Source of the DNA: Myxococcales bacterium
Lineage (GTDB): Bacteria > Myxococcota_A > Polyangia > Palsa-1104 > JAEUJZ01
DNA length: 64,000 nt
Reading direction: 5' to 3'
Assembly (NCBI GenBank): GCA_016794505.1
Contig: JAEUJZ010000074.1
Location: 49,061 to 113,060 of the forward strand
Below, piece after piece: positions 10,522 to 58,484 of this stretch. The position numbers were made by a program, and so were the translations under genes. The number at the start of each line of letters is the position of its first letter. Within the stretch, counting starts at the first letter, position 1. The notes under the pieces were generated by a model, which ran no database searches, was not told where the DNA came from, and saw nothing but the letters and a program-made list of their open reading frames with translations.

Positions 10522-10545
10522 GCGCGCAGAGAGTAACGGTAACGG

Positions 10546-20712: not shown

Positions 20713-20871
20713 AGATCGCTATGTGGCAGAAATTCAGGCCCAGGGGAACTTCTGTCTTGCTCGCGCAGCACGCAGTGCGATCGTTCCGTCGACAGCGCCG
20801 CGCCCACCCGACGCACGCAGCACACTGCAGACCGTCGTCAATGGCTCGGCCCTCGAACGCAGCGCTGCGAT

Positions 20872-25224: not shown

Positions 25225-25255
25225 CTCGCTCGGCTCCCAACGTGTCGTTTGCCCG

Positions 25256-33300: not shown

Positions 33301-33762
33301 CGGCGCCCGCTCGCGCAGGACGATCTTTTCCGCCCGTCCCTTGGTCGTCGACATCGCGACACCGACCGTCAGCGTCTTGTTCAGGCTGACGCGAACGCCC
33401 GGTCGCTCGACGATGACGTCGTTGAAGTAGAAGCGGACGATGTAGTTATCGCCCGGCGGTAGCTGCGTGATCAGATACCGACCGCTGCTGTCGGTTACTT
33501 CCGTCTGATCGCCTTGCAGCGCGGGACCGCTGATCACCACGGTGACGCCCGGCAACGGACGCCCGCTTTCTTTGTTGGTCACCTGTCCCTGAATGCCGCC
33601 GAACTGGACCTGCGCCATCGCCGATGGCGCATACAGCGTCGACAGAGCCATGCCGCCGGTCAGCAGCGCAGGCAGGGAAAGCTGACGCAAAAGCGGGCGG
33701 GCCAACGGCCGCTCCGTCGAGCGCAAAGGACGCTTAGAACGATTCTGCTTTCGTGATCTCAT
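30370..33762 (-). CDS. Oar-like TonB-dependent outer-membrane receptor with an N-terminal carboxypeptidase-regulatory-like domain
   Basis: A signal peptide leads into a CarboxypepD_reg-like beta-sandwich (GIQGQVTNKESGRPLPGVTVVISGP...TDSSGRYLI). A TonB-dependent plug and a roughly 1000-aa beta-barrel follow, ending in the aromatic residue typical of this family (RLAF). Confidence 0.8.
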   Translation of the reverse strand: MRSRKQNRSKRPLRSTERPLARPLLRQLSLPALLTGGMALSTLYAPSAMAQVQFGGIQGQVTNKESGRPLPGVTVVISGPALQGDQTEVTDSSGRYLITQLPPGDNYIVRFYFNDVIVERPGVRVSLNKTLTVGVAMSTTKGRAEKIVLRERAPNVDTVTANTGVEVTQEILQNTAVRGRTYESVMSLAPGSADVAPRQQAGGDVGVSFSGAVGNENAVIIDGLNTTDLNTGVVATQLHQYFIKDIQVITGGYQAEYGRATGGVISIATKTGSNEFHGGVFGAWAPYQATPNTVARLGEALGTRTRQLHQYDFGFELGGPILKDRIWFYAGFAPTFTITGIDRVLRSRVKGAMQADGTFLPERDTDYRAPSYLADPALSAGLEQNALRTTEVGSQELREYQRIYNWIGKLQFNINPDHNITVGYIGAPQIDRFYNGNVRNDPNGLLVDRSQQVHDGMVHYIGKLFDRKLQLDVLYGYHYQGRADVPNALGRQQIRYRASGANPYSLADFEDVPGCRRDGNDPNDPKAFNPCPITDYFAYGYGQFVLNRVLQRHALQASGTLFVNLLGNHQFKLGFDFEDNLSDNTRKYTGTDFDPNSLYAGRVTYTTNADGSGLRTNRGFALPDEVNQFGDKGTPCPIAKGFYCYDYFRAVTETRNYAVYLRDSWNVSFLPGFVINAGVRWEIQDVYGADGSKQISLLDNIAPRVGFAWDPTRKGRAKIYGNFGRFFQSIPMDINDRAFSGEGLLVGRGFVTDCPKRANSQTGRSLVVPGSTSDLPCNLSQPRVAGSGVFAPVQPGLKGQYLDEFVAGGQYDVGWDIVVGAFYTYRTLGQAVEDLSVNGGETYFIANPGAVADPSQVKQLEDDLAAAKKAAEANPTNKDLAEKAAQAERRLEVTKAVALFPPPKREYHAITFTINKRLSNRFSILANYTYSRLTGNFPGPFNPYNNQLDPNITTQYDIIDLLVNRDGPLNNDRPHNLKATGFYVQPLFGGKGSLTASLTFTALSGRPIQVLGQHSVYGARETFILPSGSGGRTPMITQMDAHIGYDHQLTDQVKATLYFDVINLFNQQEVINVDDEYTFSFVDPIRYGKPEDLKRLRSPDGSVPVLNSNYGQPTAYQAPLYLRVGARLAF

Positions 33763-33809
33763 TGCCGGTTTCCACGGGATGGGTCGTGTCGTGTTGCGTC
33801 ACGCCCCGA

Positions 33810-35069
33810 CTAGGGGCACTTGCTCGCTGCGCGTGCGTCGGCGTTCTTGACATGCGGCTCTGCTGCCGTCGCTGCAAACTTCACATTCAGGATTAGCTCG
33901 CCGCTTATGCTGTGCCGCCCCTGCGTGAACATGCCCCCCTGCGCGACGTCCTTGATGCTGCCCGCCGGGATGCGAATCTTCAGCTCGTTGGCATCGCTGG
34001 GCCAGTCGCCAGTCATCGGGAAGACGTACAGCTCTCGCTGGCTCTGGGGCTTGCATTCCGAGCGACCAAAGGCGTTGCTGCCCAGCCCGACTTGGATGAG
34101 CGCCCCACCGTCTCTGCGTGCTTCCACCATCACGGCGCTCAGGCCGGCGTGAAAGACCGGCGCATTGAGCAGCAGCGTCACCGCTCCGTTGCGCTGCTGA
34201 TCGGCCACGTCAAACGTCGTCAGCGCCGGCTGGCTCTTGTAAACCCACTCATCCTTGTCGGGGCTGTTCTTGCTGCCAAACACCCGCAGGATCTGGAATG
34301 GCTCGGTCTTGAACTTCAGCAGCGCACCCTGTTCCCCTGCGCCCGACCACTTTTCGCCATCGCGGCCCGCGATTCCACTTGCGAGCTGGATCGTGTAGCT
34401 GCTGTCCGGTTCCAAGGCCGCCCGCGGATCCGTGTTGTCCTTTGACTTGTCGTTCTTGGTGAACAGCGACAGTTGGATCGATGGGCCGTAGGGGATCGAT
34501 ACCGGATCAAACGACACATCCGATCCGCTGATGAACAAGTTGCGCGACATCGGAGGCTGGCCGCCACACTCCGTACAGATCAGCTTCACCGAGTCGCGCA
34601 AGGCCACGCTGGCCGCATCCGTGGTGTTGGCATCTTTGCTCGCATCCCACGAGGTACCCAGCTCTTTCCCGTCGAGCATAAGCGGCGCCTTGTTGAAGAC
34701 GATGCGAATGTCCCGCCCGGAATCGGGCGTCGGCGGACTCTTGTGCGGCGCGTAGCGATCTTTGAAGACGTCGTTGTAACAGATGCGGCAGATGCGCAGC
34801 TCGCGGTTCTCGGCCTTCGTGCAGTCCGGCGCCATCTTGCAGTCAGGCAAGCTGGTATCCGTGAAGACGGTCGCATCGCGCGAGCCCGGATCAGACAGCG
34901 TCAACCTTAGGACTTGGATCGGACCCTTGGGCTCTTCAAGCTGACCCGTCAAGTAGTCAGCGCAGCCCGAAAGAAGCAGCGCGGCGCTCAGCCCAGCGCA
35001 GGCGCCTAGGCTGACACCGGCACCGGAAACGGCACCAGAAAAAGCTCGGAAGGTTCGTGACGATGACAT
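33810..35069 (-). CDS. Hypothetical lipoprotein
   Basis: A signal peptide with a lipobox (AALLLSGCADY) is present. No recognisable domain was found. Coding-like composition runs across 1.2 kb. Confidence 0.5.
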   Translation of the reverse strand: MSSSRTFRAFSGAVSGAGVSLGACAGLSAALLLSGCADYLTGQLEEPKGPIQVLRLTLSDPGSRDATVFTDTSLPDCKMAPDCTKAENRELRICRICYNDVFKDRYAPHKSPPTPDSGRDIRIVFNKAPLMLDGKELGTSWDASKDANTTDAASVALRDSVKLICTECGGQPPMSRNLFISGSDVSFDPVSIPYGPSIQLSLFTKNDKSKDNTDPRAALEPDSSYTIQLASGIAGRDGEKWSGAGEQGALLKFKTEPFQILRVFGSKNSPDKDEWVYKSQPALTTFDVADQQRNGAVTLLLNAPVFHAGLSAVMVEARRDGGALIQVGLGSNAFGRSECKPQSQRELYVFPMTGDWPSDANELKIRIPAGSIKDVAQGGMFTQGRHSISGELILNVKFAATAAEPHVKNADARAASKCP

Positions 35070-35222
35070 CGCAATGCTCCAGGCGTGGTTGCTGCAGACC
35101 AGCTGAACTACACGAGCCGGCGCAATGCCTATACAACGAGGAGACCGCCAAAGTCATCAATGAAGATCACGCCCCCGGCCAGCCCCTGGGCGCTCTCCTT
35201 TGGCTTCGCATCCGCCGTCGGA

Positions 35223-36611
35223 TCACGATGAGGCGCGCTGAAGTCGCGGCAGCAAGACGTCTTCGAGCGCGTCGATCCGCGGCGCGACGATCTGCGGCGA
35301 GTTATGCGGTAGAACGCCGCGTTGCTCTAAGCGCTCTGGGTCAACGTTTTCTTGCGTTCGCAGCGGCGATTCGAGCCGTTCGGGTCGATGGTGTCGCAGC
35401 TTCTGACCACTGAACTTCAAGCCGTGCGCCGTGCTAATGACCACAACGCGCTCGTGCGATCGCACGGTGTCCTGCTCGCGCAGGTGTCGCAGCGCGGCCA
35501 GCGCCACGCCGGTATGCGGATCGGCATACAGGCCGTGTCGATCGCCCTGCAGCCAAGCCTGCGTGATCTCATCTTCGCTGGCTTGCTCGACCACGCCCGC
35601 GAAGTCTTTCAATGTGGCGATCGCTTTGTCGACATTGACCGGGTGACCGATGCGAATGGCGCTGGCCTGCGTCGGACCGGCCAGCGTTGGATGAAAGCGC
35701 CACTCGTTCTTGAACGCCGCATAAAGAGGGGCCGACGCTTGTGCTTGCGCGGCGCACAGACGGGGCAGCCGATCGATGAGCCCCACAGTTCGAAGCAGCT
35801 TGAAGCCTTTGCCGATCGCGGTGACGTGTCCCAAGTTGCCGCTGGGAACGATGATCCAGTCGGGCACTTGCCAGCCCAGCTGCTGGCAGATCTCCACCGA
35901 TAGTGTCTTTTGTCCCTCGATCCGCAGCGGGTTCATCGAGTTCGCCAAGTAGACGCCGTGGCGCCCGCAAAACTCGGCGACCAAGCGCATGCAGCCATCA
36001 AAGTCGGTATCCAGCGCGCACGTCGTCGCGAAGCTTGAAAGCGGCTGAGCCAACTGTTCGTCGCTGACCTTGTCAGCTGGCAAGAAAACGATGGCCGGGA
36101 TGCCAGCCCGCGCGGCATACGCCGACAGCGCCGCCGACGTGTCACCCGTGGATGCACAAGCAATCGCCGCAATCCGATGATTCCGCCGCAGCGCTTGCAC
36201 CATCGAGACCAGCGCCGTCATACCCACGTCTTTGAACGATCCCGTGGGGTTGTGTCCGCACTGCTTGATCCACAGATGCTCACAACCAAGCTCACGCCCC
36301 AGCGTCGGCATCGGTACCAGCGGAACCCTCCCCTCGCCCAGCGAGACGATGTCCGCGTCGGTTAGGGCCGGCAACACCCACTCTCGCTGAGCCCAGACGC
36401 CGCTCTGATCTAGAAACGCGGCACTACTCGCCCGCGCCGAAAGGAGGGCCCGCCATGCATCGGCCGATCGCTCTTGCCACGCCGCTTCGTCATGTACGAC
36501 ATCTAGCAAGCCGCCGCAGCCCCGGCAGCGCACCAAGATCTCGGTCAGCGGATACGTTGCACCGCAGCCGGCAAAGCAGCGAAACCAGGCAGAGAAGTTC
36601 GGGGATGACAT
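35223..36611 (-). CDS. thrC: Threonine synthase
   Basis: An N-terminal zinc-ribbon-like segment reads CFAGCGATYP..RCRGCGG. The PLP-lysine motif is SFKDVGMTALVS. The PLP enzyme fold continues beyond it. The start is chosen at MSSPNF (36611). Confidence 0.85.
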   Translation of the reverse strand: MSSPNFSAWFRCFAGCGATYPLTEILVRCRGCGGLLDVVHDEAAWQERSADAWRALLSARASSAAFLDQSGVWAQREWVLPALTDADIVSLGEGRVPLVPMPTLGRELGCEHLWIKQCGHNPTGSFKDVGMTALVSMVQALRRNHRIAAIACASTGDTSAALSAYAARAGIPAIVFLPADKVSDEQLAQPLSSFATTCALDTDFDGCMRLVAEFCGRHGVYLANSMNPLRIEGQKTLSVEICQQLGWQVPDWIIVPSGNLGHVTAIGKGFKLLRTVGLIDRLPRLCAAQAQASAPLYAAFKNEWRFHPTLAGPTQASAIRIGHPVNVDKAIATLKDFAGVVEQASEDEITQAWLQGDRHGLYADPHTGVALAALRHLREQDTVRSHERVVVISTAHGLKFSGQKLRHHRPERLESPLRTQENVDPERLEQRGVLPHNSPQIVAPRIDALEDVLLPRLQRASS

Positions 36612-36678
36612 GCACGGCCGTCCTTGGCGAGGTGAGGTGTGATTCGTCAACGGGCTTCGTCTTCAGCGCGCTTCGTCT

Positions 36679-38244
36679 TCAGCGCGCTTCGTCGTTCTGG
36701 CGAATGAAGTGCTCGTAAAACGCAACCACTCGCGCAAAGTCCGCGATCGCGATCCGCTCGTCGGTCCCATGGAATCGCGCGAGGTCATCCGGGCGGAACA
36801 GAATGGGCATGAAGCGATAGGCGTTGTCGGCTACGGCGGCATAGTGGCGAACATCGCTGGCTCCGATCATCAGCGAAGGCGCCACGACAGCGTCGGGGAA
36901 GTGATCTCGGATGCTCTGCGCGATGCGCGCAAAGGCCGGCGAATCGGCAGACGATGTAGTCGAGGGCTCGTTGCCGCGCCCGCCTGCGATCTGCACTTCA
37001 ACACGAGGGTCAGCGACCGTCTTGCGCACGTGCTCCAGCACTGCCTGGACGCTGTCTCCGGGCAAGATGCGAAAGTTGACATAGGCCCGCGCTCGCTGCG
37101 GCAGCACGTTTTCTTTTGGGCTGCCTTCCAGCATCGTGATCGCCGTCGTCGTGCGCACCAGAGCATTGGTCGAGGGTCGCTGCGCTAGCTGCCAGTGCAA
37201 GACGGGCTCGAACAGCCATAGGTTGGTCATCAGCAACCGCAGCGCGGGCGGCATCTCGGGCGCTAGGTGTTCGAACATCAAGCGAGGCGCACCAGACAGA
37301 CGAACCGGAAGCTGATGCGTCTCAAGTCGCGTGAGCGCTGCAGCCAAGATACCGGCTGCCGTCTGCGTCGGCGGCATCGAGGAGTGTCCCCCCTGCGATC
37401 GCACGGCCACTTCGATCGTCACGGAGCCTTTTTCAGCAAGCCCGATCAGCGCCACCGGCTGGCTGAGGCCGGGCAGCATGCCCTCGACCAAGGCCATGCC
37501 TTCGTCCAGAGCGAACTCCACGCGAACGCCGCGCTGCGCCAAGCGCGCTGTAATCGCTTGCGCCCCGCTTCCACCCACTTCCTCGTCGTGCCCACTGCCG
37601 ATATACAGTGTTCGCTTCGGCTTGTAGCCGCTTTTGATCAGTCGCTCGATCGCCTCCATTATTCCGATCAAGCTGAACTTGTCGTCGAGCGCTCCGCGTC
37701 CCCAGATGTGGCCATCGACGAGAGCCCCCGAAAACGGTGGCTGCTGCCAGCGCGACTCGGTCCCAGGCTCAACCGGCACGACATCTTGGTGCGCCGCAAG
37801 CAGGTACGGAGGCAGCGTGCCATCGCTGCCGCGCCAGGTATAAAGCAGCGCCTGTCCCGGAACTGCAGCGTCCGAGGCAATGGCTTCCCGTTCGAGCGCA
37901 GCATGAAGCAGCGGAAAGGTCGACTGCAGGTACGCGTGCAGCGCCGTAAAGGCTTGTGCGCTGCGTGCCACGGCAGAGGCGTCCTTCTGAAGAGGTGAAA
38001 GCGAAATCGTGGGAATGCGAACCGCCGCCGCCAAGTGTTCTGCCATGGCCTGCTGTTCGGCCGAACTGATAGGTGCAGCGATGGATCCTGGGTTCTTTGG
38101 TGGCTGCCGTGAGCGTGTCATGGCCATCTTGATGACCAAGCCTGCGAACAGCGCGCAGAGTCCGATCAGGGAGACGACCATCAGCTGTTTCCAGCGCCGA
38201 GCGCCACCAGGTCTTGCCTGTTCTAGCGACGTCTCGGTGCTCAT
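36679..38244 (-). CDS. M20/M25/M40-family metallopeptidase (ArgE/DapE/CPG2-like) with an N-terminal membrane anchor
   Basis: An N-terminal TM helix is followed by M20 metal-binding motifs (HQDVVP, GRGALDDK, SGHDEEVGGSGA). Confidence 0.75.
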   Translation of the reverse strand: MSTETSLEQARPGGARRWKQLMVVSLIGLCALFAGLVIKMAMTRSRQPPKNPGSIAAPISSAEQQAMAEHLAAAVRIPTISLSPLQKDASAVARSAQAFTALHAYLQSTFPLLHAALEREAIASDAAVPGQALLYTWRGSDGTLPPYLLAAHQDVVPVEPGTESRWQQPPFSGALVDGHIWGRGALDDKFSLIGIMEAIERLIKSGYKPKRTLYIGSGHDEEVGGSGAQAITARLAQRGVRVEFALDEGMALVEGMLPGLSQPVALIGLAEKGSVTIEVAVRSQGGHSSMPPTQTAAGILAAALTRLETHQLPVRLSGAPRLMFEHLAPEMPPALRLLMTNLWLFEPVLHWQLAQRPSTNALVRTTTAITMLEGSPKENVLPQRARAYVNFRILPGDSVQAVLEHVRKTVADPRVEVQIAGGRGNEPSTTSSADSPAFARIAQSIRDHFPDAVVAPSLMIGASDVRHYAAVADNAYRFMPILFRPDDLARFHGTDERIAIADFARVVAFYEHFIRQNDEAR

Positions 38245-39608
38245 AACGCCTCCGTTTTCTTGGATGGATCGGTCGCGCGGATCGCTCGCAGCAGAAGGTG
38301 TAGCGCGGTGATCGCAGACAAGCGCCGAATGTCCTCGCGATCACCGGGCCAATAGATCGCTCGCGCTTCGATCCCCATCGGACCGCAGACCGCGATATGC
38401 ACCGTCCCGACGGGCTTTTCAGGCGTTCCGCCCCCCGGACCCGCAACGCCCGAGATCGCTACACCGTAGGTTGTGTTGAAGCGCTCGCGAGCCCCACGCG
38501 CCATCTCTTCGACGCACTCGCGGCTTACCGCGCCGTGCTGCAGCAGAGTCTCCTCCCGCACTCCAAGCTGCTGCACTTTGGCTTCGTTTGCGTACGAGAT
38601 GACGCCTCCTTGGTAGTAGTCGGAACAGCCGGCGACTCCCGTGATCAGCGCCCCGAGCAATCCGCCTGTACACGACTCCGCGGTAGCCAGCTTCGCTCCC
38701 GCTTGGCGCAGCGCACGTCCGATGACAAGCGGCAACTCATCGGCAAGCTCGCCATACGCCGCATCGCCCAAGCGATCGCGCACTTTGCGCAGCAAGCCCA
38801 TGTGGTGCGTCTGCGCGTCGGTCGTGTCTCCCGTCGTAACGAGGGTCACCAGGATCTCAGGAAACGCCAACCGATAGTGCAGGGTCGTTCTTGTCGGTGC
38901 CAAGCCATCGCGGCCCGCGGCCACCAGTTCGGGCAGCAGGTCACGCAGCTTCTGATCCGTCTGTCCTTCCGTGAGTCCAAAGACACGCAGTGTTGTCTTC
39001 TGCTGGCTATACGCAGCCGGCAGGCGCTGACGCAGTCGCGGGGCGATCGCAGTCGCAAAGATCGCTTTCAGCTCAGCTGGGACGCCGGGCATGAAGAACA
39101 GCTCGCAGTCCTCGTGGTGAATTGCAAAGCCCGGTGCCAAACCGACCGGATTGGCCAACACCGTCGCTCCTGCAGGGACGCGCACCTGGCGCAGCGCCAG
39201 CGCCGGCACATCCCGCTTTCTCTCGGCAAAGCGAGCCCGTAGGCGATCTTCATGAGCTTGGTCGACCACCGCGCTCGATCCGATCAATCCCGCAGCGACA
39301 TCGACCGTCAGATCGTCCGAAGTGGGCCCCAACCCGCCGCTTACGAGGACCACCGAGGCACAGGAACAAGCTCGTCGGAGCGCCTCGATCATGTCGGACT
39401 CGATGTCATTCACACCGAAGCGCCACATGACTTGATATCCCAAATCGCTGAGCTGCTCGCCCAGCCACGCGGCATTGCGATCGACGACTTCGCCGCGGTT
39501 GAGCTCATCTCCGATACAGACGATCGCTGCGCGACCTGCTGACGACCACGTACGATCAGACGCAGAGACTGGCACGTGAGGAGCACGTTCAGACGAGACT
39601 TTTGACAT
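38241..39608 (-). CDS. cinA: CinA-family competence/damage-inducible protein (nicotinamide-nucleotide amidohydrolase)
   Basis: The N-terminal MoCF-biosynthesis-like domain reads AIVCIGDELNRGEVVDRNAAWL. The C-terminal CinA domain reads LATAESCTGGLLGALITGVAGCSDYYQGGVISYAN. The stop overlaps the start of the downstream M20 gene by 4 nt. Confidence 0.8.
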   Translation of the reverse strand: MSKVSSERAPHVPVSASDRTWSSAGRAAIVCIGDELNRGEVVDRNAAWLGEQLSDLGYQVMWRFGVNDIESDMIEALRRACSCASVVLVSGGLGPTSDDLTVDVAAGLIGSSAVVDQAHEDRLRARFAERKRDVPALALRQVRVPAGATVLANPVGLAPGFAIHHEDCELFFMPGVPAELKAIFATAIAPRLRQRLPAAYSQQKTTLRVFGLTEGQTDQKLRDLLPELVAAGRDGLAPTRTTLHYRLAFPEILVTLVTTGDTTDAQTHHMGLLRKVRDRLGDAAYGELADELPLVIGRALRQAGAKLATAESCTGGLLGALITGVAGCSDYYQGGVISYANEAKVQQLGVREETLLQHGAVSRECVEEMARGARERFNTTYGVAISGVAGPGGGTPEKPVGTVHIAVCGPMGIEARAIYWPGDREDIRRLSAITALHLLLRAIRATDPSKKTEAL

Positions 39609-39825
39609 GCGCGCGATTCTACCGCAAAGCACATGGCGCCCTGTTTGGGGCTGGCTCGCTGTAGGCTAGACCGACAGGCACGATGTCCTGCACGCCTGCT
39701 TACTGGTTCGTCACCGACTCACCGGCCAAGGTTCGACGGAGTGGGGTCAGCAGTCCCGTTGACTTTATCTCGCCGGTTGATAAAGTCCTATTCTGCGCGG
39801 TGATATAGGGCCGGGCGTTTTTACC

Positions 39826-40638
39826 ATGAAGATCCGCTACGCTGCCAAGACCGATCCTGGAATGAAACGCACCCACAATGAGGACTTCTACCTCACGCTC
39901 GATGAGGAGAAACTCTTCATCGTGGCGGACGGCATGGGTGGCCATGCAATGGGCGAGGTGGCCTCGAAGATGGCCGCTGAGACCTTGCAGGAGTTCTACA
40001 AGCGGACCAAAGACGAGGACGCCACCTGGCCCTATAAAATGGACCGGCAGCTCTCGTATGTGGAAAACCGCTTGGTGTGCGGCATCAAGCTCGCCAACTG
40101 GAAAGTCCACGAATCTGCCACCAAGGACCCCCGCTGCAAGGGTATGGGCACCACGATGGTGACCTGCATGCTCAACGGCGATCGGGCGTACTTTGGTTGG
40201 GTGGGTGACTCGCGTGGCTACCGTCTGCGCAACGGGGTCATCAAGCAGATGACGCGCGATCACAGCCTCCTTGAGGACTACAAAGAGGCGAAGCCGGACA
40301 TGACCGAGGAAGAGCAGCGCAACTTCCCGCACAAGAACGTCATCACAAGAGCCCTCGGCATGCGGGAGACCGTCCAGGTTGACATCCGCCCCGAGGGAAT
40401 CGAGATCGGCGATACGTTCATGCTGTGCTGCGACGGACTCACCGGCATGATTGACGATCAGCGGATCGGCGAGATCATCAAAATTGCCGATGAAGACCTT
40501 GAGAAGTGCGTGACCGATCTAGTCGACCAAGCCAACAAGAACGGCGGCGTCGACAACATCACGGTCATCGTCCTGCGCACCTACGAGGACGACAAATACA
40601 AAGAGGTCGCAGAGAAGTTCGACAAGAAAAAGAACTAG
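39826..40638 (+). CDS. PP2C-family Ser/Thr protein phosphatase (Stp/PrpC-like, soluble)
   Basis: PP2C motifs are present ([50 protein letters not shown]). The GC content is somewhat lower than the flanking genes. Confidence 0.85.
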
Positions 40639-40736
40639 CGCCCTCGCCGCCTCTCGCCTCGCAAGCTGTTCTCCAGTCAGCCTCCCCGCAAATTTTTCAG
40701 CAGACAAGAAGCCGCGCCTGCCATTAGATCCGTCTC

Positions 40737-42020
40737 ATGGCTATCGGATCTTCATGTGACGTAGACGTTGTGATTGCCGGCGGTGGACCGGCGGGCTCGA
40801 CTACCGCGAGCTTTCTGCGCCGCCACGGCAGAAGCGTGCTGGTGCTCGAACGCGAGCAGTTCCCGCGCTTCCATATTGGGGAATCGCTTCTCCCCTGCGC
40901 GGGCGATATCTGGGACGAGCTGGGCTTAAAAGAAGAGATGCATCGTCGCTTCATCGTCAAGCCCGCGGCTCGCTTCATCCACAACGAGTCGGGCGCGCAG
41001 TTCACGTACTACTTCGCCAACGCCATCCGTCCCGACTACCCCTACGCGTACGAAGTTCAGCGCGATGAGTTCGATCACATGCTCCTTGAGCGCTCGCGGG
41101 AGCTTGGGGCTGACGTGCGTTACCTGAGCGAGGTGCGCGATATCGATATCCAAGCCGATGGCGTACGCACCGAGGTACAGCCAAGCGAGGGGGCGCCATA
41201 CGAAGTGCGCAGTCAGGTCTTTGTCGACGCCACCGGCCGAGACACCCTGCTTGGCAACCGCTTGGGCCTAAAAGTCGCAGACGAGCTCGTCACGACCAAC
41301 GCTGCTTGCTTCACGCACTTCCGCAACTGCAACCGTCAGACCGGCAGCGACGAAGGAAATATCACCATCGTCCTCTTCGACGGTGGTTGGTGGTGGTTCA
41401 TCCCATTTAAGGGGGACATCACATCGGTTGGCTGCGTGCTTCAGAAGCATTTCTCCTTGGCGCATCGCGGTGCATCACCCGAAGAGATGTTCAACGCAGC
41501 GCTGGCTGTCACGCCGTCGATGCAGGACCTTTTGCGCGGAGCCGTCCGCATTCGTCCAGTCGGTACCACCGGCAACTGGTCGTATCGCTGCCGCCAGTTC
41601 TACGGCGATCGCTTCCTTCTAGTCGGAGACGCGGCAGGCTTCATCGATCCACTGTTCTCAACCGGCGTATTGATGGCGGCCTACGGTGGACGCTATGCAG
41701 CGCAAGCCATCGACGCAGCCCTTGCCGCATCGGACTTCTCGGCGAACCGTTTCGCGGAGTATCAGCAGCAAGCGCTGCAGGGTGCCGATCTCTTCAAGAA
41801 GCTCGTCCATGAGTTCTATGGTGAGAGCCTGCGCAAGCTGCTCGTCCACTCGGCTGCCCATCCCGCCACCTGCGCTGTGATCACCAGCATGCTGGCTGGC
41901 GATGTCTATCGACCCGCCCTCTGGCAGTCGGTGGTCCGCTCTGGCTTTTCGCGCGACATCCCCGAAAGCGGGCTGCCCTCTCGCGCTGAGCGACGCGGCA
42001 AACCCAACGATCTCACCTAG
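40737..42020 (+). CDS. FAD-dependent oxidoreductase of the flavin-dependent halogenase type
   Basis: An N-terminal FAD Rossmann motif reads VVIAGGGPAGSTTA. The GWxWxIP-type motif is present (GGWWWFIPF) and the FxxPxxSxG motif is present (FIDPLFSTG). Both are signatures of flavin-dependent halogenases. The geranylgeranyl-reductase-like fold is consistent. Confidence 0.65.
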   Translation: MAIGSSCDVDVVIAGGGPAGSTTASFLRRHGRSVLVLEREQFPRFHIGESLLPCAGDIWDELGLKEEMHRRFIVKPAARFIHNESGAQFTYYFANAIRPDYPYAYEVQRDEFDHMLLERSRELGADVRYLSEVRDIDIQADGVRTEVQPSEGAPYEVRSQVFVDATGRDTLLGNRLGLKVADELVTTNAACFTHFRNCNRQTGSDEGNITIVLFDGGWWWFIPFKGDITSVGCVLQKHFSLAHRGASPEEMFNAALAVTPSMQDLLRGAVRIRPVGTTGNWSYRCRQFYGDRFLLVGDAAGFIDPLFSTGVLMAAYGGRYAAQAIDAALAASDFSANRFAEYQQQALQGADLFKKLVHEFYGESLRKLLVHSAAHPATCAVITSMLAGDVYRPALWQSVVRSGFSRDIPESGLPSRAERRGKPNDLT

Positions 42021-42130
42021 CCGTCCCCACCAGGCGCGCCCCCGCTGTCCTCGCGCTTGGGCCCTTGCATCATCACCGACAATAAACGGACGCTCTGCCA
42101 GTCTAAGCAGACAGATTCATCGAGTTCTTT

Positions 42131-43021
42131 GTGAGGCAAGCGTCTATGCAAACGTGTTACCCTCGATTCATGGTCCGTAAGTACCTATGTTCCGCACTGT
42201 TAGGTGTCGCTCTGGCTTTGCCGACCGTGGCGTTCGCAGATGAAGCGGATGCCCAGTACCGCAAGGGTCTAGAGCTAATGCAGCAAGGCAAACACGACGA
42301 CGCGCAGGCCGCACTCGAAGAGGCCCTGCGACTGCGTCCCAACTACGCCGCTGCCCAGCTCACACTGGGCAACGTGTTCCGGCGGCAAAAGAAGTGTGAC
42401 AAGGCGGTCGTGCAGTACGAGGCCGTCATCAAGACTCAGCCCAACGATCCGTTTGCACACGGCAACCTGGGCTTCTGCTACTCGATGCTGGGCAAGCCCA
42501 CCGACGCCATCCGCGTGCTAGAACGAGCGACAGAGCTTGCGCCAAACGAAGTGCAGTGGCGTATGTCTCTGGGGGCGCTGTACCGTCAGGCCAAGCAATA
42601 TGACAAGGCCGTTGCTCAGCTCGACAAGGCCGCGCAGCTTGACCCCAACAACGCTGACGTCATGCGCAACTTGGCCGTCGCCCTGCGGCAGACCAAGCAG
42701 CTTGATCGCGCCGCCGAGGTGACCAAGCAGGCCATTCGGCTCAAGCCCGGTGACAGCGATCTGCACTTCGATCTCGCAGTGATCTATCGCGTGCAGCAAA
42801 AGACGCAGGAGGCGATCGCGGCCTATCGCGACGCTGTGCGCCTAAACGACAAGAATGCCGACGCCTGGTACGACTTGGGCGTGCTCCTCGCGCAGGACAA
42901 GCAGCGCCAGGAAGCGATCGATGCGTTCAACAAGTACATCGACCTCGTCGGCGACAAGCGGGGCAATTCTGTCGAGGGTGTGCGGCAGCAGATCAAGGGC
43001 CTAGGTGGCACGCCTCACTAA
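42131..43021 (+). CDS. Secreted tetratricopeptide-repeat protein
   Basis: A signal peptide is followed by about 7 consecutive 34-aa TPR units with conserved W-LG-Y, A and P positions. Confidence 0.7.
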   Translation: MRQASMQTCYPRFMVRKYLCSALLGVALALPTVAFADEADAQYRKGLELMQQGKHDDAQAALEEALRLRPNYAAAQLTLGNVFRRQKKCDKAVVQYEAVIKTQPNDPFAHGNLGFCYSMLGKPTDAIRVLERATELAPNEVQWRMSLGALYRQAKQYDKAVAQLDKAAQLDPNNADVMRNLAVALRQTKQLDRAAEVTKQAIRLKPGDSDLHFDLAVIYRVQQKTQEAIAAYRDAVRLNDKNADAWYDLGVLLAQDKQRQEAIDAFNKYIDLVGDKRGNSVEGVRQQIKGLGGTPH

Positions 43022-43655
43022 GAGCGCCGTCGACCCTCTGCCAGCTGAAACCTGGCGCGAACAGATCGTCGAGTTTCACGATCAGCTCGTGCGTGAGCGC
43101 GGTGAAGGCTGGGGTGCATTCTGGGGCAGCCCAGCCTCGCAGCGCAGTCGGTACGAGATCTTCTTCCGCGAGCTGCCTCTTTCCGGCAGCGACGTCCTCG
43201 AAGTCGGCTGCGGCTTCGGCGATTTCCTACACATCGCGCGCGAGCGAAGTGCCCTGCCCCGTCGCTATCTCGGCGTCGATCTCAGCGATTCAATCATCGC
43301 CGCCGCACGGCGCAGCCACCCGCAGGCGGACTTCGCCGTCCTCGACCTCTTGGCCAGTGAGCCGCCGTTTCAGCCTGACTTCGTGATCGCCTCGGGCATC
43401 ATGGCCGTCGATGTTCCCGACTACGAAGCCTATGCCGTCGCCATCCTGCGGCGCTTTCATGGCCTGGCACGCCACGGCTTCGCGATCAACTTCCTTAGCA
43501 CCTGCAGCGACAAACCCGATGGGCGCAGCCGCTATGTCGATCCTGGCTGGCTACTCGGTGTGTTTCTGCGCCACGTCGACTGGCGCTGCCGCCTGCTGCA
43601 CGACTATCGCCAGAACGACTTCACGCTGGTTCATCTGCGCCCGCCGTCGCCGTAG
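43005..43655 (+). CDS. Class I SAM-dependent methyltransferase
   Basis: SAM motif I reads VLEVGCGFGDF. An acidic loop (LGVDLS) and motif-III-like segments are present. The gene overlaps the TPR gene's 3' end by 17 nt. Confidence 0.6.
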   Translation: MARLTKSAVDPLPAETWREQIVEFHDQLVRERGEGWGAFWGSPASQRSRYEIFFRELPLSGSDVLEVGCGFGDFLHIARERSALPRRYLGVDLSDSIIAAARRSHPQADFAVLDLLASEPPFQPDFVIASGIMAVDVPDYEAYAVAILRRFHGLARHGFAINFLSTCSDKPDGRSRYVDPGWLLGVFLRHVDWRCRLLHDYRQNDFTLVHLRPPSP

Positions 43656-44049
43656 CATCACCGTCGTGGAGTGCCCCAGACCGCGCCCGTGCTTCGCTCT
43701 GCCCCGTCAAGCGCTGCCCGCGGCTCTCGGTCGCGTGTGGGTCCTCGTGCCAGCGCATCAGCCGACGCAGCCACTCGCCATCGCGCTGCGCTTCGCGGAA
43801 TAGCTGCCGAGCCAAGGCCAGAAGGTGCTTGTGAACCCAGGCCGGCAGATCGCGTTCCGCGGCATACGCGTCAGCCCCCGGCGCAGAACGAATCTGACAT
43901 CGACCGTCGCTGCGATCGACCTGTAGCGCGCAGCGCAGCGTCTGGGTCGGCAGATAGATCGTTACGGCGTACATCACCGATACCGCATCGACTGCCTGCC
44001 GCAGCATCTCGAAGCGAGCCCCAAACGAAGGCGTCATGGCATGCACCAT
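43621..44049 (-). CDS. Hypothetical protein
   Basis: The ORF has protein-like composition. It sits between a convergent methyltransferase and alr. No recognisable motif was found. Confidence 0.35.
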   Translation of the reverse strand: MVHAMTPSFGARFEMLRQAVDAVSVMYAVTIYLPTQTLRCALQVDRSDGRCQIRSAPGADAYAAERDLPAWVHKHLLALARQLFREAQRDGEWLRRLMRWHEDPHATESRGQRLTGQSEARARSGALHDGDATATAGADEPA

Positions 44050-44099
44050 GGCCGCACCCTAGCACTGCCCGGCAGCCCGTAGGTCCCCCAATGCAGCGG

Positions 44100-45269
44100 C
44101 TATAGGCCTGTATAAATACGTGGGACACGCTTGGAGATCGCACAGCAGATCTCGTACGCGATTGTGCCCGCCCAGCCGGCCATCTCGTCGAGTGTGATCG
44201 GTGCATCCGCGACGCAATCCCGTCGAGCCTGGCCTCCGATCAGCACCACTTCGTCGCCGATCTGTACGTCGGGCACCGCGCTGACGTCGATCATCGTCAT
44301 GTCCATGGTGATCGGGCCCAGCACCGAGCAGCGTCGCCCGCCGCACAGCACCTGGGCCTGACCGCTCATGCGGCGGCTGTACCCATCGGCGTAGCCGATC
44401 GGCAGTGTGGCGATGCGAGCAGCGGCCTGGGTTCGCGTGCGACTGCCATAGCTGACGCCGGTATGGGCAGGCACCTCTCGTAGCGCGACGATGCGCGTCT
44501 TCAGCGACAAGACCGGCCACAGCCCAGAAAGAGCGGTATTCGGCGGTGCCACGCCATACAGGCCAATGCCCGGCCGCACCAGGTCCAGTCGCGCCGATCC
44601 AAAGCGCACGGCGCCCGCGGTGTTGGCTGCGTGCAAGACCCCCGGCTGAAGCCCCATCGCCGACAGGCGCTGCCGGCAGGCGAAGAAGCGCTCTAGCTGC
44701 TCATGGGTCGTCTCGTCCCCCGGACCGTCGGCATCAGCCAAGTGCGTACACAGCCCGCCAAGCGCCACACCGGGCTCGGCCCGCAGCACATCGACGAAGG
44801 CGTCCAGACTCTCGGGGCGAACGCCCAAGCGCGACATCCCGGTGTCGATCTTCAGATGAACTGGCACTCGCGGCGCTCCCAGGTCCGCCGCCGCCCGAGC
44901 AAAGCGCGAAAGGTCGCGGGCATCGGCCACAACCGGCGTCAGGCGATAGGCCACGACATCGCGATGCGACAGACCATAAAAGCAGCCCAGAACGACGATC
45001 GGTTGATCGATCAAGCCCGCCCGTCGAAGCTCAACGCCCTCTTCCACCAGCGAGACGGCGAAGCCCCAGACCTGGCGCGCCACCGCCTGCGCACACGGCA
45101 CCGCCCCATGGCCATAGGCATCGGCTTTGAGCACGGCCATGATACCCGTCCGCGACGGTGGATCCCCCGCCGCAGCGAAGAATGCATCGGACGAAGGATC
45201 GCCACCGTCAACGTGGGAACGCAGCACATCGACGTTGCGGCGCAGGGCTCCCAGGTCGATCTCGGCCAC
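44100..45269 (-). CDS. alr: Alanine racemase
   Basis: The N-terminus reads AEIDLGALRRNV. The PLP-lysine motif is AVLKADAYGHGA. The C-terminal Tyr-region is consistent with the fold-type III PLP enzyme. The apparent start is a GTG at 45269, and the upstream frame closes with a TGA 25 codons above it. Confidence 0.85.
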   Translation of the reverse strand: MAEIDLGALRRNVDVLRSHVDGGDPSSDAFFAAAGDPPSRTGIMAVLKADAYGHGAVPCAQAVARQVWGFAVSLVEEGVELRRAGLIDQPIVVLGCFYGLSHRDVVAYRLTPVVADARDLSRFARAAADLGAPRVPVHLKIDTGMSRLGVRPESLDAFVDVLRAEPGVALGGLCTHLADADGPGDETTHEQLERFFACRQRLSAMGLQPGVLHAANTAGAVRFGSARLDLVRPGIGLYGVAPPNTALSGLWPVLSLKTRIVALREVPAHTGVSYGSRTRTQAAARIATLPIGYADGYSRRMSGQAQVLCGGRRCSVLGPITMDMTMIDVSAVPDVQIGDEVVLIGGQARRDCVADAPITLDEMAGWAGTIAYEICCAISKRVPRIYTGL

Positions 45270-45392
45270 CGTGGGCCGAATGTCCGTACGAATGTCGTAA
45301 ACCGAGTAGATGGCGTGATTTTCCGAGACCGGTCTAGCCCGTCAACTTTCGCGCTTCCCTTTTGCCACAAGGCAAGCTAACCGTCCTATCCC

Positions 45393-46700
45393 ATGTCGCT
45401 GCTTGCAAAGATAGAGAGCCGGCAGGCCCGCATCACCGTCATCGGGCTGGGCTATGTCGGTCTCCCGCTCGCTGTCGAGATCGCCTCCGCCGGCTTCCAT
45501 GTCACGGGCTATGACAAGAACGCCGAAAAGGTCGACTCCATCTGCCGCGGAGTGTCGTACATCAAGGACGTTTCCGACGTGGCTCTTGGTCCCCATGTGC
45601 AGTCTGGGCGCATCACCGCCACCAACGATCCCGCCTGCTTGGCCACGGCCGACGCGGTGATCATCTGCGTACCGACGCCGCTCAACAAGTCCAAGGCCCC
45701 CGACAACGGCTACATCATCGCGGCGGCTGCCGATCTGCTGCCGCACATGCACCGCGATCTGCTGGTCGTTCTCGAATCAACGACCTTCCCCGGCTTCACG
45801 CGCGAGGTGCTCTTGCCTCGCCTGCGCGAGTCGGGCCTGGTCCCCGGCCGCGACTTTTTCCTGGCGTTTTCGCCCGAGCGCGTCGATCCCGCGAACCCGA
45901 CGTATCACACGCGCAACACGCCCAAGGTCATCGGCGGCACCACGCCGCAGTGCTTGGCCGCGGTGCAGGCGCTGTATCAGACGTTTATCGATCGTTTGGT
46001 GCCGGTGTCGTCGACCGACGCTGCCGAGATGGTCAAGCTGCTGGAAAACACCTTCCGCGCCGTCAACATCGGCCTGGCCAACGAGCTGGCACTGATGTGC
46101 CAAAAGCTCGGGCTCGACACGTGGGAGGTCATCGAAGCCGCGGCCACCAAGCCGTTTGGCTTCATGCCGTTTTATCCCGGCCCCGGCCTCGGTGGGCACT
46201 GCATCCCCGTCGACCCGCTGTACCTTTCGTGGAAGCTGCGAACCCTCAAGTACGAGGCGCGCTTCATCGAGGTCGCCGATCAGGTCAACGCTGGCATGCC
46301 CGAGTTCGTCGTGTCGCGCCTGCAGGATGCGCTGAACGATGTCTCGCTGCCGCTGCGCGGGGCCGAAATCTTGGTCTTGGGCGTCGCCTACAAGCGCAAC
46401 ATCGACGACATCCGCGAGTCGCCGGCCCTCGATATCATCGAGATGCTGGCGGAAAAAGGCGCCCGCGTTCAGTACCACGATCCCTATGTGCCCAGCCTTC
46501 AGCTTGGCGAGCACACGTATCACAGCCAGCCGCTGGCCGACGTGGGACGCTATGCCGCAGTGGCCATTCTGACCGACCACAGCAGCGTCGACTATGCCCG
46601 TGTGGCTAGCGAGGCCGCGCTGATCGTGGACACCCGCAACGCCACCCGCAGCGTGCGCGATCTGGCTGCCCGTCGCGGCGTCCGCATTGTTCGTCTATAG
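45393..46700 (+). CDS. UDP-sugar (UDP-glucose/GDP-mannose family; WecC/TviB-like) nucleotide-sugar dehydrogenase
   Basis: An N-terminal NAD Rossmann motif reads ITVIGLGYVGLPLAVE. Central and C-terminal UDPG/MGDP dehydrogenase domains with the catalytic Cys region (GPGLGGHCIPVDP) are present. Confidence 0.85.
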   Translation: MSLLAKIESRQARITVIGLGYVGLPLAVEIASAGFHVTGYDKNAEKVDSICRGVSYIKDVSDVALGPHVQSGRITATNDPACLATADAVIICVPTPLNKSKAPDNGYIIAAAADLLPHMHRDLLVVLESTTFPGFTREVLLPRLRESGLVPGRDFFLAFSPERVDPANPTYHTRNTPKVIGGTTPQCLAAVQALYQTFIDRLVPVSSTDAAEMVKLLENTFRAVNIGLANELALMCQKLGLDTWEVIEAAATKPFGFMPFYPGPGLGGHCIPVDPLYLSWKLRTLKYEARFIEVADQVNAGMPEFVVSRLQDALNDVSLPLRGAEILVLGVAYKRNIDDIRESPALDIIEMLAEKGARVQYHDPYVPSLQLGEHTYHSQPLADVGRYAAVAILTDHSSVDYARVASEAALIVDTRNATRSVRDLAARRGVRIVRL

Positions 46701-46714
46701 ACCCGCCGCCCGCC

Positions 46715-47122
46715 ATGGCCCCGGCCTCTTTTGTCCCGCTGTCTGCGCCGCGTCGACGCCTGGCCGTGCTCTTGGCCACAGCCCCAGGGGAGCGCTTTCA
46801 GCCCCTGCCGCCCGCGAGCGATCCGCCGAGCCACACGCTGTTCGCTGACGACTTTGCCTGCGTTGCCTCGGCGCTTCGGTCGGCGGTGGCCGCCGGAGAC
46901 GACGCCGCCCTGTTCTTGATGGATCACGGCGTGCTGTACGCCACCGATCCGCGCCTGCCGCCGCTTCTCGCTGAGGGAATCGATGTTGCGCTGTGCGCCA
47001 CCGATGCCGAAGCACAGGGCCTGGATCTGATGGCCGCCGCGAGCCATGGCATCTTGCTCGGCTCGCAGCACGACCACGCCCGCCTGGTGCGCGACAGCGA
47101 TCGCTTTCTGTCGTTTACCTAG
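46715..47122 (+). CDS. DsrE/TusD-like sulfur-relay family small protein (tentative)
   Basis: A DsrE-like layout is present (LAVLLATAP...ALFLMDHGVLYA...VALCATDAEAQGLD...GILLG). The call is weak. Confidence 0.4.
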   Translation: MAPASFVPLSAPRRRLAVLLATAPGERFQPLPPASDPPSHTLFADDFACVASALRSAVAAGDDAALFLMDHGVLYATDPRLPPLLAEGIDVALCATDAEAQGLDLMAAASHGILLGSQHDHARLVRDSDRFLSFT

Positions 47123-47143
47123 CCGCTCGTCTCGCAAGCCCGC

Positions 47144-47479
47144 ATGCCGTCCCGCCCCGCGAACCGTCCACAAGGCCACGCCGCGCCGAAGCGCGTCCTG
47201 GTCATTCTGCGTCGCCCGCCCGAGCATCCTCGCACAGCCCAAGGCCTGCGCGCTGCCGTCGGCTATGCCGCGGTGGGCCTGCGCGTGCAGATCGCCTGCG
47301 TCGGCCCGGCCCAGCCCATCGGCTTGCGTCCCGCGGCCGAGCTTCCCCCGCTGCTTGTGCGTCCACGACAGACCCTGGTGGCCTTGGGCAGCCTTCTAGT
47401 CTCACTGTCCGATGATCCGCAGGCCGCCGAGCGCCTGTCTGAGCTGGCTCAAGCCAGCGATGTCGTCGTCTGCTGGTAA
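47144..47479 (+). CDS. DsrE/DsrF (TusC)-like small protein (tentative)
   Basis: The N-terminus KRVLVILRRPP and the QIACVG segment resemble DsrF/TusC-type proteins. The gene is paired with the upstream DsrE-like gene. Confidence 0.35.
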   Translation: MPSRPANRPQGHAAPKRVLVILRRPPEHPRTAQGLRAAVGYAAVGLRVQIACVGPAQPIGLRPAAELPPLLVRPRQTLVALGSLLVSLSDDPQAAERLSELAQASDVVVCW

Positions 47480-50103: not shown

Positions 50104-51009
50104 ATGCGCATCCCACGTAAGCCCAATGAGTCGCGCCGCGTTCGCTCTGAAGCCCCGCCCGAAACGCAGCGACCGCATGGCAAGATAGCGACCGTGCGTG
50201 TCCCCCGGAATTCCTCTGCCGCGCAGGCTGGCGAGCGGGCCATCGAGCTGGTCGATATCGACGCCGGCTCGGTGGTGCTGCGCGACGATCGCATCGGCCG
50301 CATCTGGCGCGTCGAGATCCAGCCCTTTCGCATCGCTCGATGCCCCGTCACCTGCGCGCAGTATCGCGAGCTCCTGGGCCTTGCGCCCTCGACCGACAAC
50401 GACGCCCAACCCCAGAAGGACAGCGACGCTCTGCCCGTCGTCGAGGTCTCGTGGTACGAGGCCATCGCCTTCTGCAACGCGCTGTCGGCTCAGTGCGGGC
50501 TGCCCCCCTGTTACACCCTCTCTGACGAGGGCACGCAGGTCACGTTTTCCACGGAAAGCGACGGCTATCGCTTGCCCAGCGAGGCCGAGTGGCAGTACGC
50601 CTGCCAAGCTGGCGACGAGCGCGTGCGCTATGGCGAGCTAGACGCCATCGCCTGGTACCGCGAAAACTCGGGCGGCCAGCGCCACCCCGTCGGGCAGAAG
50701 CAGCCCAACCGCTGGGGCCTGCACGACCTGCTCGGCAACGTCTGGGAGTGGTGCTGGGACCTGTACGATCCGCAGGTCTATGGCGAGTACCGCGTCTTTC
50801 GCGGGGGCGGCTGGGCAGACGCTCACTGGGGCTGCACCGCCGCCAGCCGACGTCGCAGCCATCCGACCTTCCGCATCGACGATCTCGGCTTCCGCCTGGC
50901 GCGCAGCGGGCCGGCCAGCCCGGCGCAGCGCAGCGCAGAAATCAGCGAAGCCAACGACGAGCCCAGCGAAGGAACGCGCCCACAACCGACCCGCAAGGCG
51001 AAGAGCTGA
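50104..51009 (+). CDS. Formylglycine-generating-enzyme (FGE-sulfatase/SUMF1) domain protein
   Basis: FGE signatures are present (RIARCPVTCAQYRELLG, LPSEAEWQYACQAG, GNVWEWCWDLY, RVFRGGGWAD, LGFRLAR). The start is set at MRIPRK (50104). Confidence 0.75.
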   Translation: MRIPRKPNESRRVRSEAPPETQRPHGKIATVRVPRNSSAAQAGERAIELVDIDAGSVVLRDDRIGRIWRVEIQPFRIARCPVTCAQYRELLGLAPSTDNDAQPQKDSDALPVVEVSWYEAIAFCNALSAQCGLPPCYTLSDEGTQVTFSTESDGYRLPSEAEWQYACQAGDERVRYGELDAIAWYRENSGGQRHPVGQKQPNRWGLHDLLGNVWEWCWDLYDPQVYGEYRVFRGGGWADAHWGCTAASRRRSHPTFRIDDLGFRLARSGPASPAQRSAEISEANDEPSEGTRPQPTRKAKS

Positions 51010-54474: not shown

Positions 54475-54687
54475 CGCTCGCTCCTGCACGTTGGGATGGC
54501 GTCGAGCGGACGACGTGGATGCCGAGCAAAAGCGAGAACAGGAAGACCCACGAAGCTCATGCGATCACGAACGGGATTGCAGAAAAAAACCGACATCATG
54601 AAGCGCTAGGTGGTGACGACAAGCACGGGCCTCAGGCAGCCGTGCCCTTCGGCCGAGGAGCAAAGAGAAGTCGCGGTCGACCGTGAC

Positions 54688-54912
54688 TCAGACGCTGTAT
54701 CCCTTGGTGGCGATTCGGCTCACCCCCAACACACCAGCCGCCTCGGCAGTAATGTTGCTGCCGGGAGCCACCTGGATCGCGTCGTAGTTCAGGTACAGCG
54801 AGTATCCGCCTTTGAGGTTCGTGCGGACCTTCAGACCGGTGTTTCCTTCGTCATCATCGTCAGCAACGTTTTCAGACTCAGGGTTCGGATTGGCAGTGGC
54901 TTGAGTATTCTG
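54688..54912 (-). CDS. Candidate RiPP precursor peptide (75 aa, Cys-free)
   Basis: A canonical RBS precedes the start (AAGGAGcgactATG). The codon usage is lower in GC than the flanking genes. The sequence is MQNTQATANPNPESENVADDDDEGNTGLKVRTNLKGG|YSLYLNYDAIQVAPGSNITAEAAGVLGVSRIATKGYSV. The leader is acidic and ends in a double-Gly-like KGG. The core is rich in Ser, Thr and Tyr and has no Cys. The ORF lies directly upstream of lanB and downstream of the export cassette. Confidence 0.5.
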   Translation of the reverse strand, partial: QNTQATANPNPESENVADDDDEGNTGLKVRTNLKGGYSLYLNYDAIQVAPGSNITAEAAGVLGVSRIATKGYSV

Positions 54913-55099
54913 CATAGTCGCTCCTTGGGTAGGAATGAACAGGCTTCGATCCAGAATGCCTTGTCCAGGATAGGACGCTGCGACTCGGATTCGTAGATGA
55001 TTTTCACGCGGATTTATCGTCGCTGAATAAGGAAATCGGAACGCAGGCTTAGCGCCGGCCCACCGACCCCAGATGCCCTGAACGAAGCGAGCGCAGGCG

Positions 55100-56335: not shown

Positions 56336-56358
56336 GACGTATCGAAATCCGCTGAACG

Positions 56359-58440: not shown

Positions 58441-58484
58441 GTCGGCAGCCTTGCGCAGCGGCCACAGGACAGATGCGAGATTGC

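Follow-up and report, generated by a model that had tools for sequence, protein, structure and literature searches.

What does a flavin-dependent halogenase (FDH) do in a myxobacterial genome in which its gene lies among housekeeping genes? The question is raised by the open reading frame (ORF) 40737-42020 of a 64,000-nucleotide stretch, hereafter the window, from an assembly of a Myxococcales bacterium (GCA_016794505.1, contig JAEUJZ010000074.1). The initial annotation had taken the ORF for an FDH-like enzyme flanked by TPR and S-adenosylmethionine (SAM) methyltransferase genes, and had tentatively offered two partners, the methyltransferase and a locus of the kind that makes ribosomally synthesized and post-translationally modified peptides (RiPPs). 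We consider it likely that the gene encodes a functional two-component FDH of the phenol/pyrrole type, vertically inherited, and that it belongs neither to the LanB locus nor to a pathway with the methyltransferase.

Family, catalytic residues and fold

The Pfam model Trp_halogenase (PF04820) matches the ORF at 116.4 bits (E 2e-33), and because this score stands against a cut-off of 21 bits the set of FDH motifs is not a product of chance. The description of the protein in the initial annotation was borne out by family profile, PDB profile search, fold and motifs: GGGPAGS, GGWWWFIPF and FIDPLFSTG are present at residues 15-21, 216-224 and 302-310, and hold the GxGxxG, WxWxIP and Fx.Px.Sx.G motifs by which FDHs are defined (PMC8407142). 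Conservation was assessed in 193 sequences, 121 from the clade and 72 from wider relatives. G15, G17 and G20 are invariant in 119 of the clade members, the other two being N-terminally truncated, and in all 72 wider relatives; W218, W220, I222 and P223, F302, P305, S308 and G310, and likewise K75 and E49, are invariant throughout both groups. In HMMER alignments K75, the predicted catalytic residue, falls on the Lys of CmlS (KKP), PltA (PKKFG), ChlB4, Mpy16, CndH (IKRGG) and FasV (RKYGG), and E49 matches the GES Glu of the same six enzymes. The Lys, whose loss was to have refuted the halogenase assignment, is thus kept, and the geranylgeranyl reductase model TIGR02032 stays below its cut-off (142.2 vs 158.8 bits); the QhpG and LodB models fall far below theirs. 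Another group of residues, in the C-terminal helical region, marks the clade itself: E359, D389, V390, W396, G403 and F404 are invariant within it and variable in wider relatives, Y391 belongs to the same clade-specific motif (D389-V390-Y391), and the LAGDVY stretch aligns with LLQGDVY of PltA and Mpy16.

Searched against PDB sequences, a profile of the clade scored highest with FasV (8ZOP, so named solely from its Foldseek description; 265 bits), PltA (261), ChlB4 (260), CndH, Mpy16 and CmlS (253 each), followed by the flavoprotein 3NIX (217), Bmp2 (208), RadH (175), PltM (127) and CtcP (115). Trp halogenases reached 40-53 bits, and MibH was found neither at E <= 1e-5 nor among the top 60 profile matches to PDB. 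In the same search bona fide halogenases score about 200 bits above reductases and monooxygenases. The best NCBIfam match is CmlS as well (NF033113; 227 bits). Names given to relatives in the source, such as "tryptophan 7-halogenase" and "NAD(P)/FAD-dependent oxidoreductase", are generic.

The AlphaFold2 (AF2) model of the protein (pLDDT 84.5, pTM 0.85) agrees with this ranking. Foldseek retrieved PltA at a template modelling (TM) score of 0.86 and 2.3 Å, then ChlB4 (0.85), 3NIX (0.84), Mpy16 (0.82), Bmp2 (0.81) and FasV (0.80), and each of the top 40 matches is either a halogenase or 3NIX. The alignments with PltA, Mpy16 and ChlB4 run through the C-terminal helices to a common GDVY/GDFY motif, which those with FasV, CndH and CmlS do not reach. 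Our literature search returned nothing on 8ZOP, or on 3NIX in connection with halogenases. By profile search and fold alike, the placement is nearest the phenol/pyrrole type and far from the Trp type. The sequence comparisons support the assignment of the ORF to the compact (about 420-450 aa) FDHs of the phenol/pyrrole class, whose halogenating activity it would share, and on the structural model it appears closest to the carrier-protein-dependent "variant B" enzymes, though at only ~30% identity. In this sense it adds one more member to an enzyme family already known.

By homology, the reaction would be expected to follow the two-component scheme. A separate, unlinked flavin reductase would supply FADH2, which would react with O2 in an FAD site of Rossmann type (G15-G20); halide would then attack the resulting flavin hydroperoxide, giving HOCl or HOBr. 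Two motifs, WxWxIP (218-223) and Fx.Px.Sx.G (302-310), would keep the organic substrate off the flavin and line the tunnel, and K75, together with E49, would capture the hypohalite or hold it in place, so that an electron-rich aromatic ring can undergo electrophilic substitution. The window does not encode the substrate, which is most likely a small molecule of phenol or pyrrole type, or an acyl group tethered to a carrier protein, formed by other parts of the genome.

Table 1. Position of the FDH gene, its sequence signatures and other features of the window, with the sets of homologous loci referred to in the text (L numbers)
Feature	Position	Strand	Description or basis
FDH coding sequence	40737..42020	+	ATG start, 427 aa; PF04820, metagenome gene call, AF2 model, Foldseek
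GxGxxG FAD-binding motif (G15-G20, inside GGGPAGS)	40779..40796	+	sequence
E49 of HIGESLLP	40881..40883	+	aligns with Glu of CmlS RVGESLLP (HMMER)
K75, predicted catalytic Lys (haloamine or HOX-positioning)	40959..40961	+	HMMER alignments
WxWxIP motif, WWWFIP (W218-P223)	41388..41405	+	sequence
Fx.Px.Sx.G tunnel motif, FIDPLFSTG (F302-G310)	41640..41666	+	sequence
C-terminal helical region, LVHEFY (356-361) and LAGDVY (386-391)	41802..41909	+	alignments, conservation
PP2C Ser/Thr phosphatase, Stp1/IreP-type	39826..40638	+	directly upstream of FDH; Pfam PP2C, NCBIfam NF033484
TPR protein	42131/42146-43021	+	downstream of FDH; TPR_1 E 6e-45; 291-aa gene call (42146..43021)
Class I SAM methyltransferase	43005..43655	+	Methyltransf_25 E 3e-8; 17-nt overlap with TPR stop
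LanB	51091-54489	-	full-length; no LanC seen
RiPP-like locus	51091-61265	-	LanB, HlyD, ABC transporter, C39-peptidase ABC transporter; starts 9.07 kb after FDH stop
Precursor-like ORF, 75 aa	54688-54915	-	leader ends LKGG, then 38-aa core YSLYLNYDAIQ...KGYSV
FGE-sulfatase (formylglycine-generating-enzyme-like) domain genes	12905-13822, ~50104-51009	+	
Eukaryotic-like signalling genes	9286-12681, 17357-19384, 23752-25284, 4533-6140		
TonB-dependent receptor	30370-33762		
Type I loci			window, L001-5, L008, L088-90, L093-95
Type III loci			L006, L011, L013, L091, L092, L097, L098
35-40% homologues in aryl-polyene-like clusters			L025, L026, L030, L037, L042-44, L060-61, L064, L066, L069, L073-74, L076, L078-80, L087

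Clade, selection and gene neighbourhood

The same FDH gene was called on two metagenome contigs (L088/L089), with an identical protein on both, and one of these contigs shares 100% DNA identity with the window over 30737-52020, the FDH gene included; the host organism is therefore uncultured. At least 120 clusters at 90% identity were found in a large protein database, every one of them sharing 54% identity or more with the query. Among the matches listed for species-representative genomes, only six uncultured Myxococcales/Polyangia metagenome-assembled genomes carry relatives at 56-83% identity, and identity falls to 40-45% in Polyangium/Sorangium and to 35-40% in Verrucomicrobia, Planctomycetes and Acidobacteria; these genome and metagenome counts describe the listed matches and do not prove that cultured species lack close orthologues. 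In a neighbour-joining (NJ) tree the query clade is monophyletic, with the Polyangium/Sorangium group as sister and all characterised FDHs outside. Judged by these comparisons, the clade is discrete, uncharacterised and restricted so far to uncultured Myxococcota. Orphan FDHs are common, and we found no literature on those of Myxococcota.

Compared with its 84% relative, the FDH gene has a ratio of nonsynonymous to synonymous substitution rates (dN/dS) of 0.09, lower than the 0.13-0.16 of the thrC-like, M20, cinA, alr and methyltransferase genes (methyltransferase, 0.15), and its GC and GC3 (third codon position) resemble those of neighbouring genes. It is native, vertically inherited, single-copy and strongly constrained. 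The PP2C and TPR proteins are far more conserved than any other gene product of the block: against the same relative they retain 97% and 95% amino acid identity at dS of ~0.8-1.0 (dN/dS 0.02 and 0.04).

The block around the FDH gene (thrC-like, M20, cinA, PP2C, FDH, TPR, alr, UDP-glucose dehydrogenase) is collinear and of housekeeping character. The flanking TPR and methyltransferase genes are as first described (Pfam), and the phosphatase, with a score of 241.6 bits, passes the NF033484 cut-off of 230. Read by eye, the N-terminus of the TPR protein looks like a signal peptide (...ALALPTVAFA/DE); the protein is probably exported, and would therefore probably not share a compartment with a cytoplasmic flavoenzyme. 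In 39400-44300 the promoters and terminators that a scan picked out were no more numerous than in shuffled sequence, and hence give no information on operon structure. The absence of nonribosomal peptide synthetase (NRPS) or polyketide synthase (PKS) partners, as initially noted, held in a Pfam scan of the window's larger ORFs, which also gave no carrier protein or ketosynthase.

Across the clade three context types can be told apart, none of them biosynthetic. In type I (70-100% identity), cinA on the reverse strand is followed by PP2C, FDH and usually TPR; PP2C-FDH adjacency is kept in L001-5, L008, L090 and L093-95, and the downstream TPR gene (76-100% identity) in L001-5, L008 and L095, within the 75-100% subclade. 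In type II (68-71%; L009, L010, L096) the order is Na+/H+ exchanger, FDH, glucokinase. In type III (56-62%) a gene for a 148-167-aa protein, or another gene, lies upstream, and a 625-660-aa lipoprotein and usually two Ser/Thr kinases follow (one or two, on contigs long enough to show them). In L006 and L091 the FDH gene overlaps the lipoprotein gene or abuts on it. The lipoprotein has weak VolA/Pla-1 lipase and esterase similarity; no Pfam family was found for it or for the 148/167-aa upstream protein, and neither has a homologue in the window. The Polyangium/Sorangium sister group has housekeeping surroundings too (metK, mnmA; read from the sequences).

Several features of these loci are recorded in their own right. 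A CPA2-type Na+/H+ exchanger gene stands directly upstream of the halogenase homologue in the three type II loci (Myxococcota), and a similar one downstream in seven loci of Verrucomicrobia/Planctomycetes type (L055, L056, L065, L072, L074, L081, L086). In four loci of the Polyangium/Sorangium group (L014, L015, L017, L018) a divergent ORF of ~105-140 aa, resembling a plant-type 2Fe-2S ferredoxin, lies ~30-450 nt upstream of the halogenase homologue; its product could be an electron-supply partner. The cinA gene of the 98% relative L001 (5461-6828) is called in two pieces (306 and 89 aa) that flank a small ORF, possibly through a frameshift, an assembly error or pseudogene formation. The window abounds in signalling genes of eukaryotic-like kind: an FHA/zinc-ribbon protein, a second PP2C (711 aa), a Ser/Thr kinase, an FHA-sigma54 activator and a response-regulator sigma54 activator.

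Two candidate partners were rejected. In L095, a 76% relative, an NRPS (adenylation, peptidyl carrier protein, condensation and adenylation domains with an embedded nitroreductase-type oxidase, then a further peptidyl carrier protein) and a PKS with thioesterase occupy 13379-21266 and begin 2.8 kb downstream of the halogenase orthologue; the L004 orthologue, 79% identical to that of L095 and with the same upstream synteny, has alr, CHAD and P450 genes there, and a reverse-strand gene intervenes. We treat the L095 NRPS-PKS as a neighbouring variable region. Proteobacterial Trp-halogenase-like genes are found beside TonB-dependent receptors; the receptor gene of the window lies 7 kb off with five genes between, and the FDH subfamily differs.

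Which role fits the evidence

Several observations weigh against a two-component phenol/pyrrole FDH. Halogenating activity is, for the whole clade, a prediction from sequence. The CmlS equivalog cut-off is far from reached (227 vs 900 bits, with profile positions 4-357 of 570 matched), so that no substrate can be transferred by orthology, and none of the ORFs scanned in the window was recognisable as a flavin reductase, a carrier protein or an enzyme that builds aromatic compounds. The NJ tree is crude, PDB sequences having entered it as aligned regions only. Finally, housekeeping-like conservation outside any conserved biosynthetic cluster is atypical for a tailoring enzyme of secondary metabolism. 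The initial annotation had also named clustering with primary-metabolism oxidoreductases as a ground for doubt; by sequence there is no such clustering, and the caveat survives in the gene neighbours, which are of primary-metabolism, core-gene-like kind.

This conservation invites an explanation in which a halogenase linked to housekeeping or signalling acts on a conserved cell component or signal (a lipid, cofactor, pigment or protein residue) and not on a natural product peculiar to one strain, possibly under Ser/Thr phospho-signalling control. The FDH is at least as conserved as the thrC-like, alr, cinA and M20 products, its discrete clade occupies three non-biosynthetic contexts, PP2C lies directly upstream in the 70-100% subclade, and an array of small protein, FDH, lipoprotein and two kinases recurs in seven loci (56-62%) although the neighbouring proteins are only 45-73% identical. 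Yet Myxococcota possess Ser/Thr kinases and phosphatases in great number, and with two PP2C, one kinase and two FHA proteins in the window alone the adjacency may reflect chance plus vertical inheritance; the many signalling genes thus weaken the argument from PP2C. Type II loci, moreover, have no signalling genes at their immediate flanks, and a housekeeping FDH would, to our knowledge, be without precedent. We regard this explanation as unlikely. Somewhat more doubtful still is a broader version, a halogenase belonging to the "core genome" of an uncultured lineage of Myxococcota, vertically inherited, constrained as housekeeping enzymes are and never found with a conserved biosynthetic pathway, whose target would again be a conserved metabolite, lipid, pigment or protein; it draws in addition on the repeated placement beside Ser/Thr phosphatase or kinase genes and genes for exported proteins.

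That the protein is a non-halogenating monooxygenase or reductase with halogenase-like motifs retained is improbable. The primary-metabolism neighbourhood, the sub-threshold matches to geranylgeranyl reductase, QhpG and LodB, and the deposition of the close structural match 3NIX only as "flavoprotein/dehydrogenase" would fit such an enzyme, but none of the 193 sequences departs from WxWxIP, Fx.Px.Sx.G, the Lys or the GES Glu, reductases and monooxygenases trail the bona fide halogenases in the profile search, and WxWxIP is thought to prevent monooxygenation (PMC8407142).

A small tailoring pathway, in which the FDH halogenates and the adjacent methyltransferase then O- or C-methylates, is very improbable. 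The genes are close and on the same strand, the methyltransferase gene overlaps the end of the TPR gene, and the order FDH-TPR-methyltransferase is kept in 83-98% relatives; the methyltransferase gene accompanies the orthologue only at 83% identity and above (L001-3, L008, L093), however, and is absent beside it in L004/L005 (75%), L095 (76%), L090 (70%) and all type II and III loci. This lack of co-conservation largely refutes the pathway suggested by the initial annotation. The methyltransferase also evolves faster than the FDH, shows generic family matches only (Pfam, NCBIfam), and is separated from it by the gene of an apparently exported protein. It should not be counted as a tailoring partner of the FDH.

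The RiPP-like locus exists at the distance first reported. Its LanB ORF encodes 1132 aa with a GTG start (1127 aa in the gene call of the metagenome collection), an FGE-sulfatase gene lies directly beside it on the opposite strand, and the 38 residues after the GG of the precursor-like peptide contain 4 Tyr, where 5 had been counted. Collinearity between the window and the 84% relative (L093) extends from 31149 to 47314 and no further: after UDP-glucose dehydrogenase and two small ORFs, L093 continues with kelch, PF1765-like and cytidylate-kinase genes, and the window with MFS, cytochrome-c-like, FGE and LanB genes. Since synteny ends before LanB, the FDH lies inside the conserved block and the LanB locus, which looks like a variable region, outside it. 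The least probable role for the FDH, and one that we disfavour, is halogenation of Tyr in the LanB-locus precursor: the two genes do share the window, and contigs of the same organism, with a precursor containing these Tyr residues, but they lie on opposite strands with at least 10 genes between (alr and UDP-glucose dehydrogenase included), no MFS, FGE or LanB gene follows the point where L093 synteny stops, the 75-76% relatives diverge downstream too, no LanB was found in the other loci of the subset checked (8 kb flanks), and MibH, the one characterised RiPP halogenase checked, clusters with the indole/Trp type (PMC8269204), whose members score poorly against a clade of PltA/CmlS/CndH type. 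The RiPP locus should be annotated without the FDH.

The two-component phenol/pyrrole FDH accordingly stays our preferred identity for the protein. If active, it stands for a large clade of compact halogenases from the environment, so far uncharacterised (at least 120 clusters at 90% identity), and would offer a further biocatalyst scaffold and possibly a halogenated metabolite typical of uncultured Myxococcota. Its unusual feature is conservation like that of a housekeeping gene outside any cluster, which tailoring genes of secondary metabolism usually do not show.

Comparison with known halogenases

The pyrrolyl-S-carrier-protein ("variant B") halogenases PltA (5DBJ), Mpy16 (5BUK) and Bmp2 (5BVA) have the same compact size and fold as the query and share all FDH motifs and the Lys, with the (L)xGDVY motif also present in PltA and Mpy16. 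They differ in sequence (~29-31% identity, outside the query clade in the tree) and in context: their partners are a prolyl-AMP ligase, a carrier protein and an acyl-CoA-dehydrogenase-like enzyme, whereas no PP-binding, AMP-binding or acyl-CoA-dehydrogenase genes occur among the window ORFs scanned. The likeness to PltA and Mpy16 is one of fold and C-terminal region, and does not extend to the co-located carrier protein and loading or oxidising genes that mark variant B. FasV (fasamycin) and ChlB4 (chlorothricin, 7FCO), phenolic-polyketide halogenases with the same motifs, are among the top sequence matches at ~32% identity, yet their own genes lie inside polyketide clusters and the query gene does not. 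FasV is served by CtcQ, an FAD reductase distinct from it (PMC11420778). CndH (3E1T), the myxobacterial enzyme of chondrochloren, and CmlS (3I3L) have the same catalytic core, Lys and GES Glu aligned, but with 512 and 570 aa they carry extra C-terminal domains and overlay worse (root-mean-square deviation 7-10 Å). The Cytophaga hutchinsonii flavoprotein 3NIX is close in fold, as described above. MibH-type lanthipeptide Trp halogenases, in contrast, share only generic FDH motifs with the query; MibH groups with the indole/Trp-type halogenases, apart from the phenolic and pyrrole ones (PMC8269204), and the query has neither Trp-type sequence nor conserved RiPP placement.

A further comparison comes from the 35-40% relatives of Verrucomicrobia, Planctomycetes and Acidobacteria, which often lie in aryl-polyene-like clusters, a label derived from gene content by ORF clustering and not from curated annotation. 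Genes that recur beside them encode ketosynthases (9 loci), an MMPL-like exporter of 840 aa (10), a LolA-like protein (8), a family 2 glycosyltransferase (GT2; 7) and an LpxL-like acyltransferase (5). This content appears to match clusters of aryl-polyene/xanthomonadin type, flexirubin-type ones alike, and xanthomonadin clusters include a halogenase (PMC3691225). Such neighbours (ketosynthase/chain-length factor, acyl carrier protein, GT2, acyltransferase, MMPL exporter, LolA-like protein) are absent from the window and from all loci of the query clade, which forms a branch separate from these relatives in the NJ tree. Halogenation of a phenolic, carrier-bound polyene starter may nonetheless be taken as the nearest functional lead that context provides, and the gene content of these clusters suggests that Verrucomicrobia, Acidobacteria and relatives include many unstudied producers of halogenated aryl polyenes.

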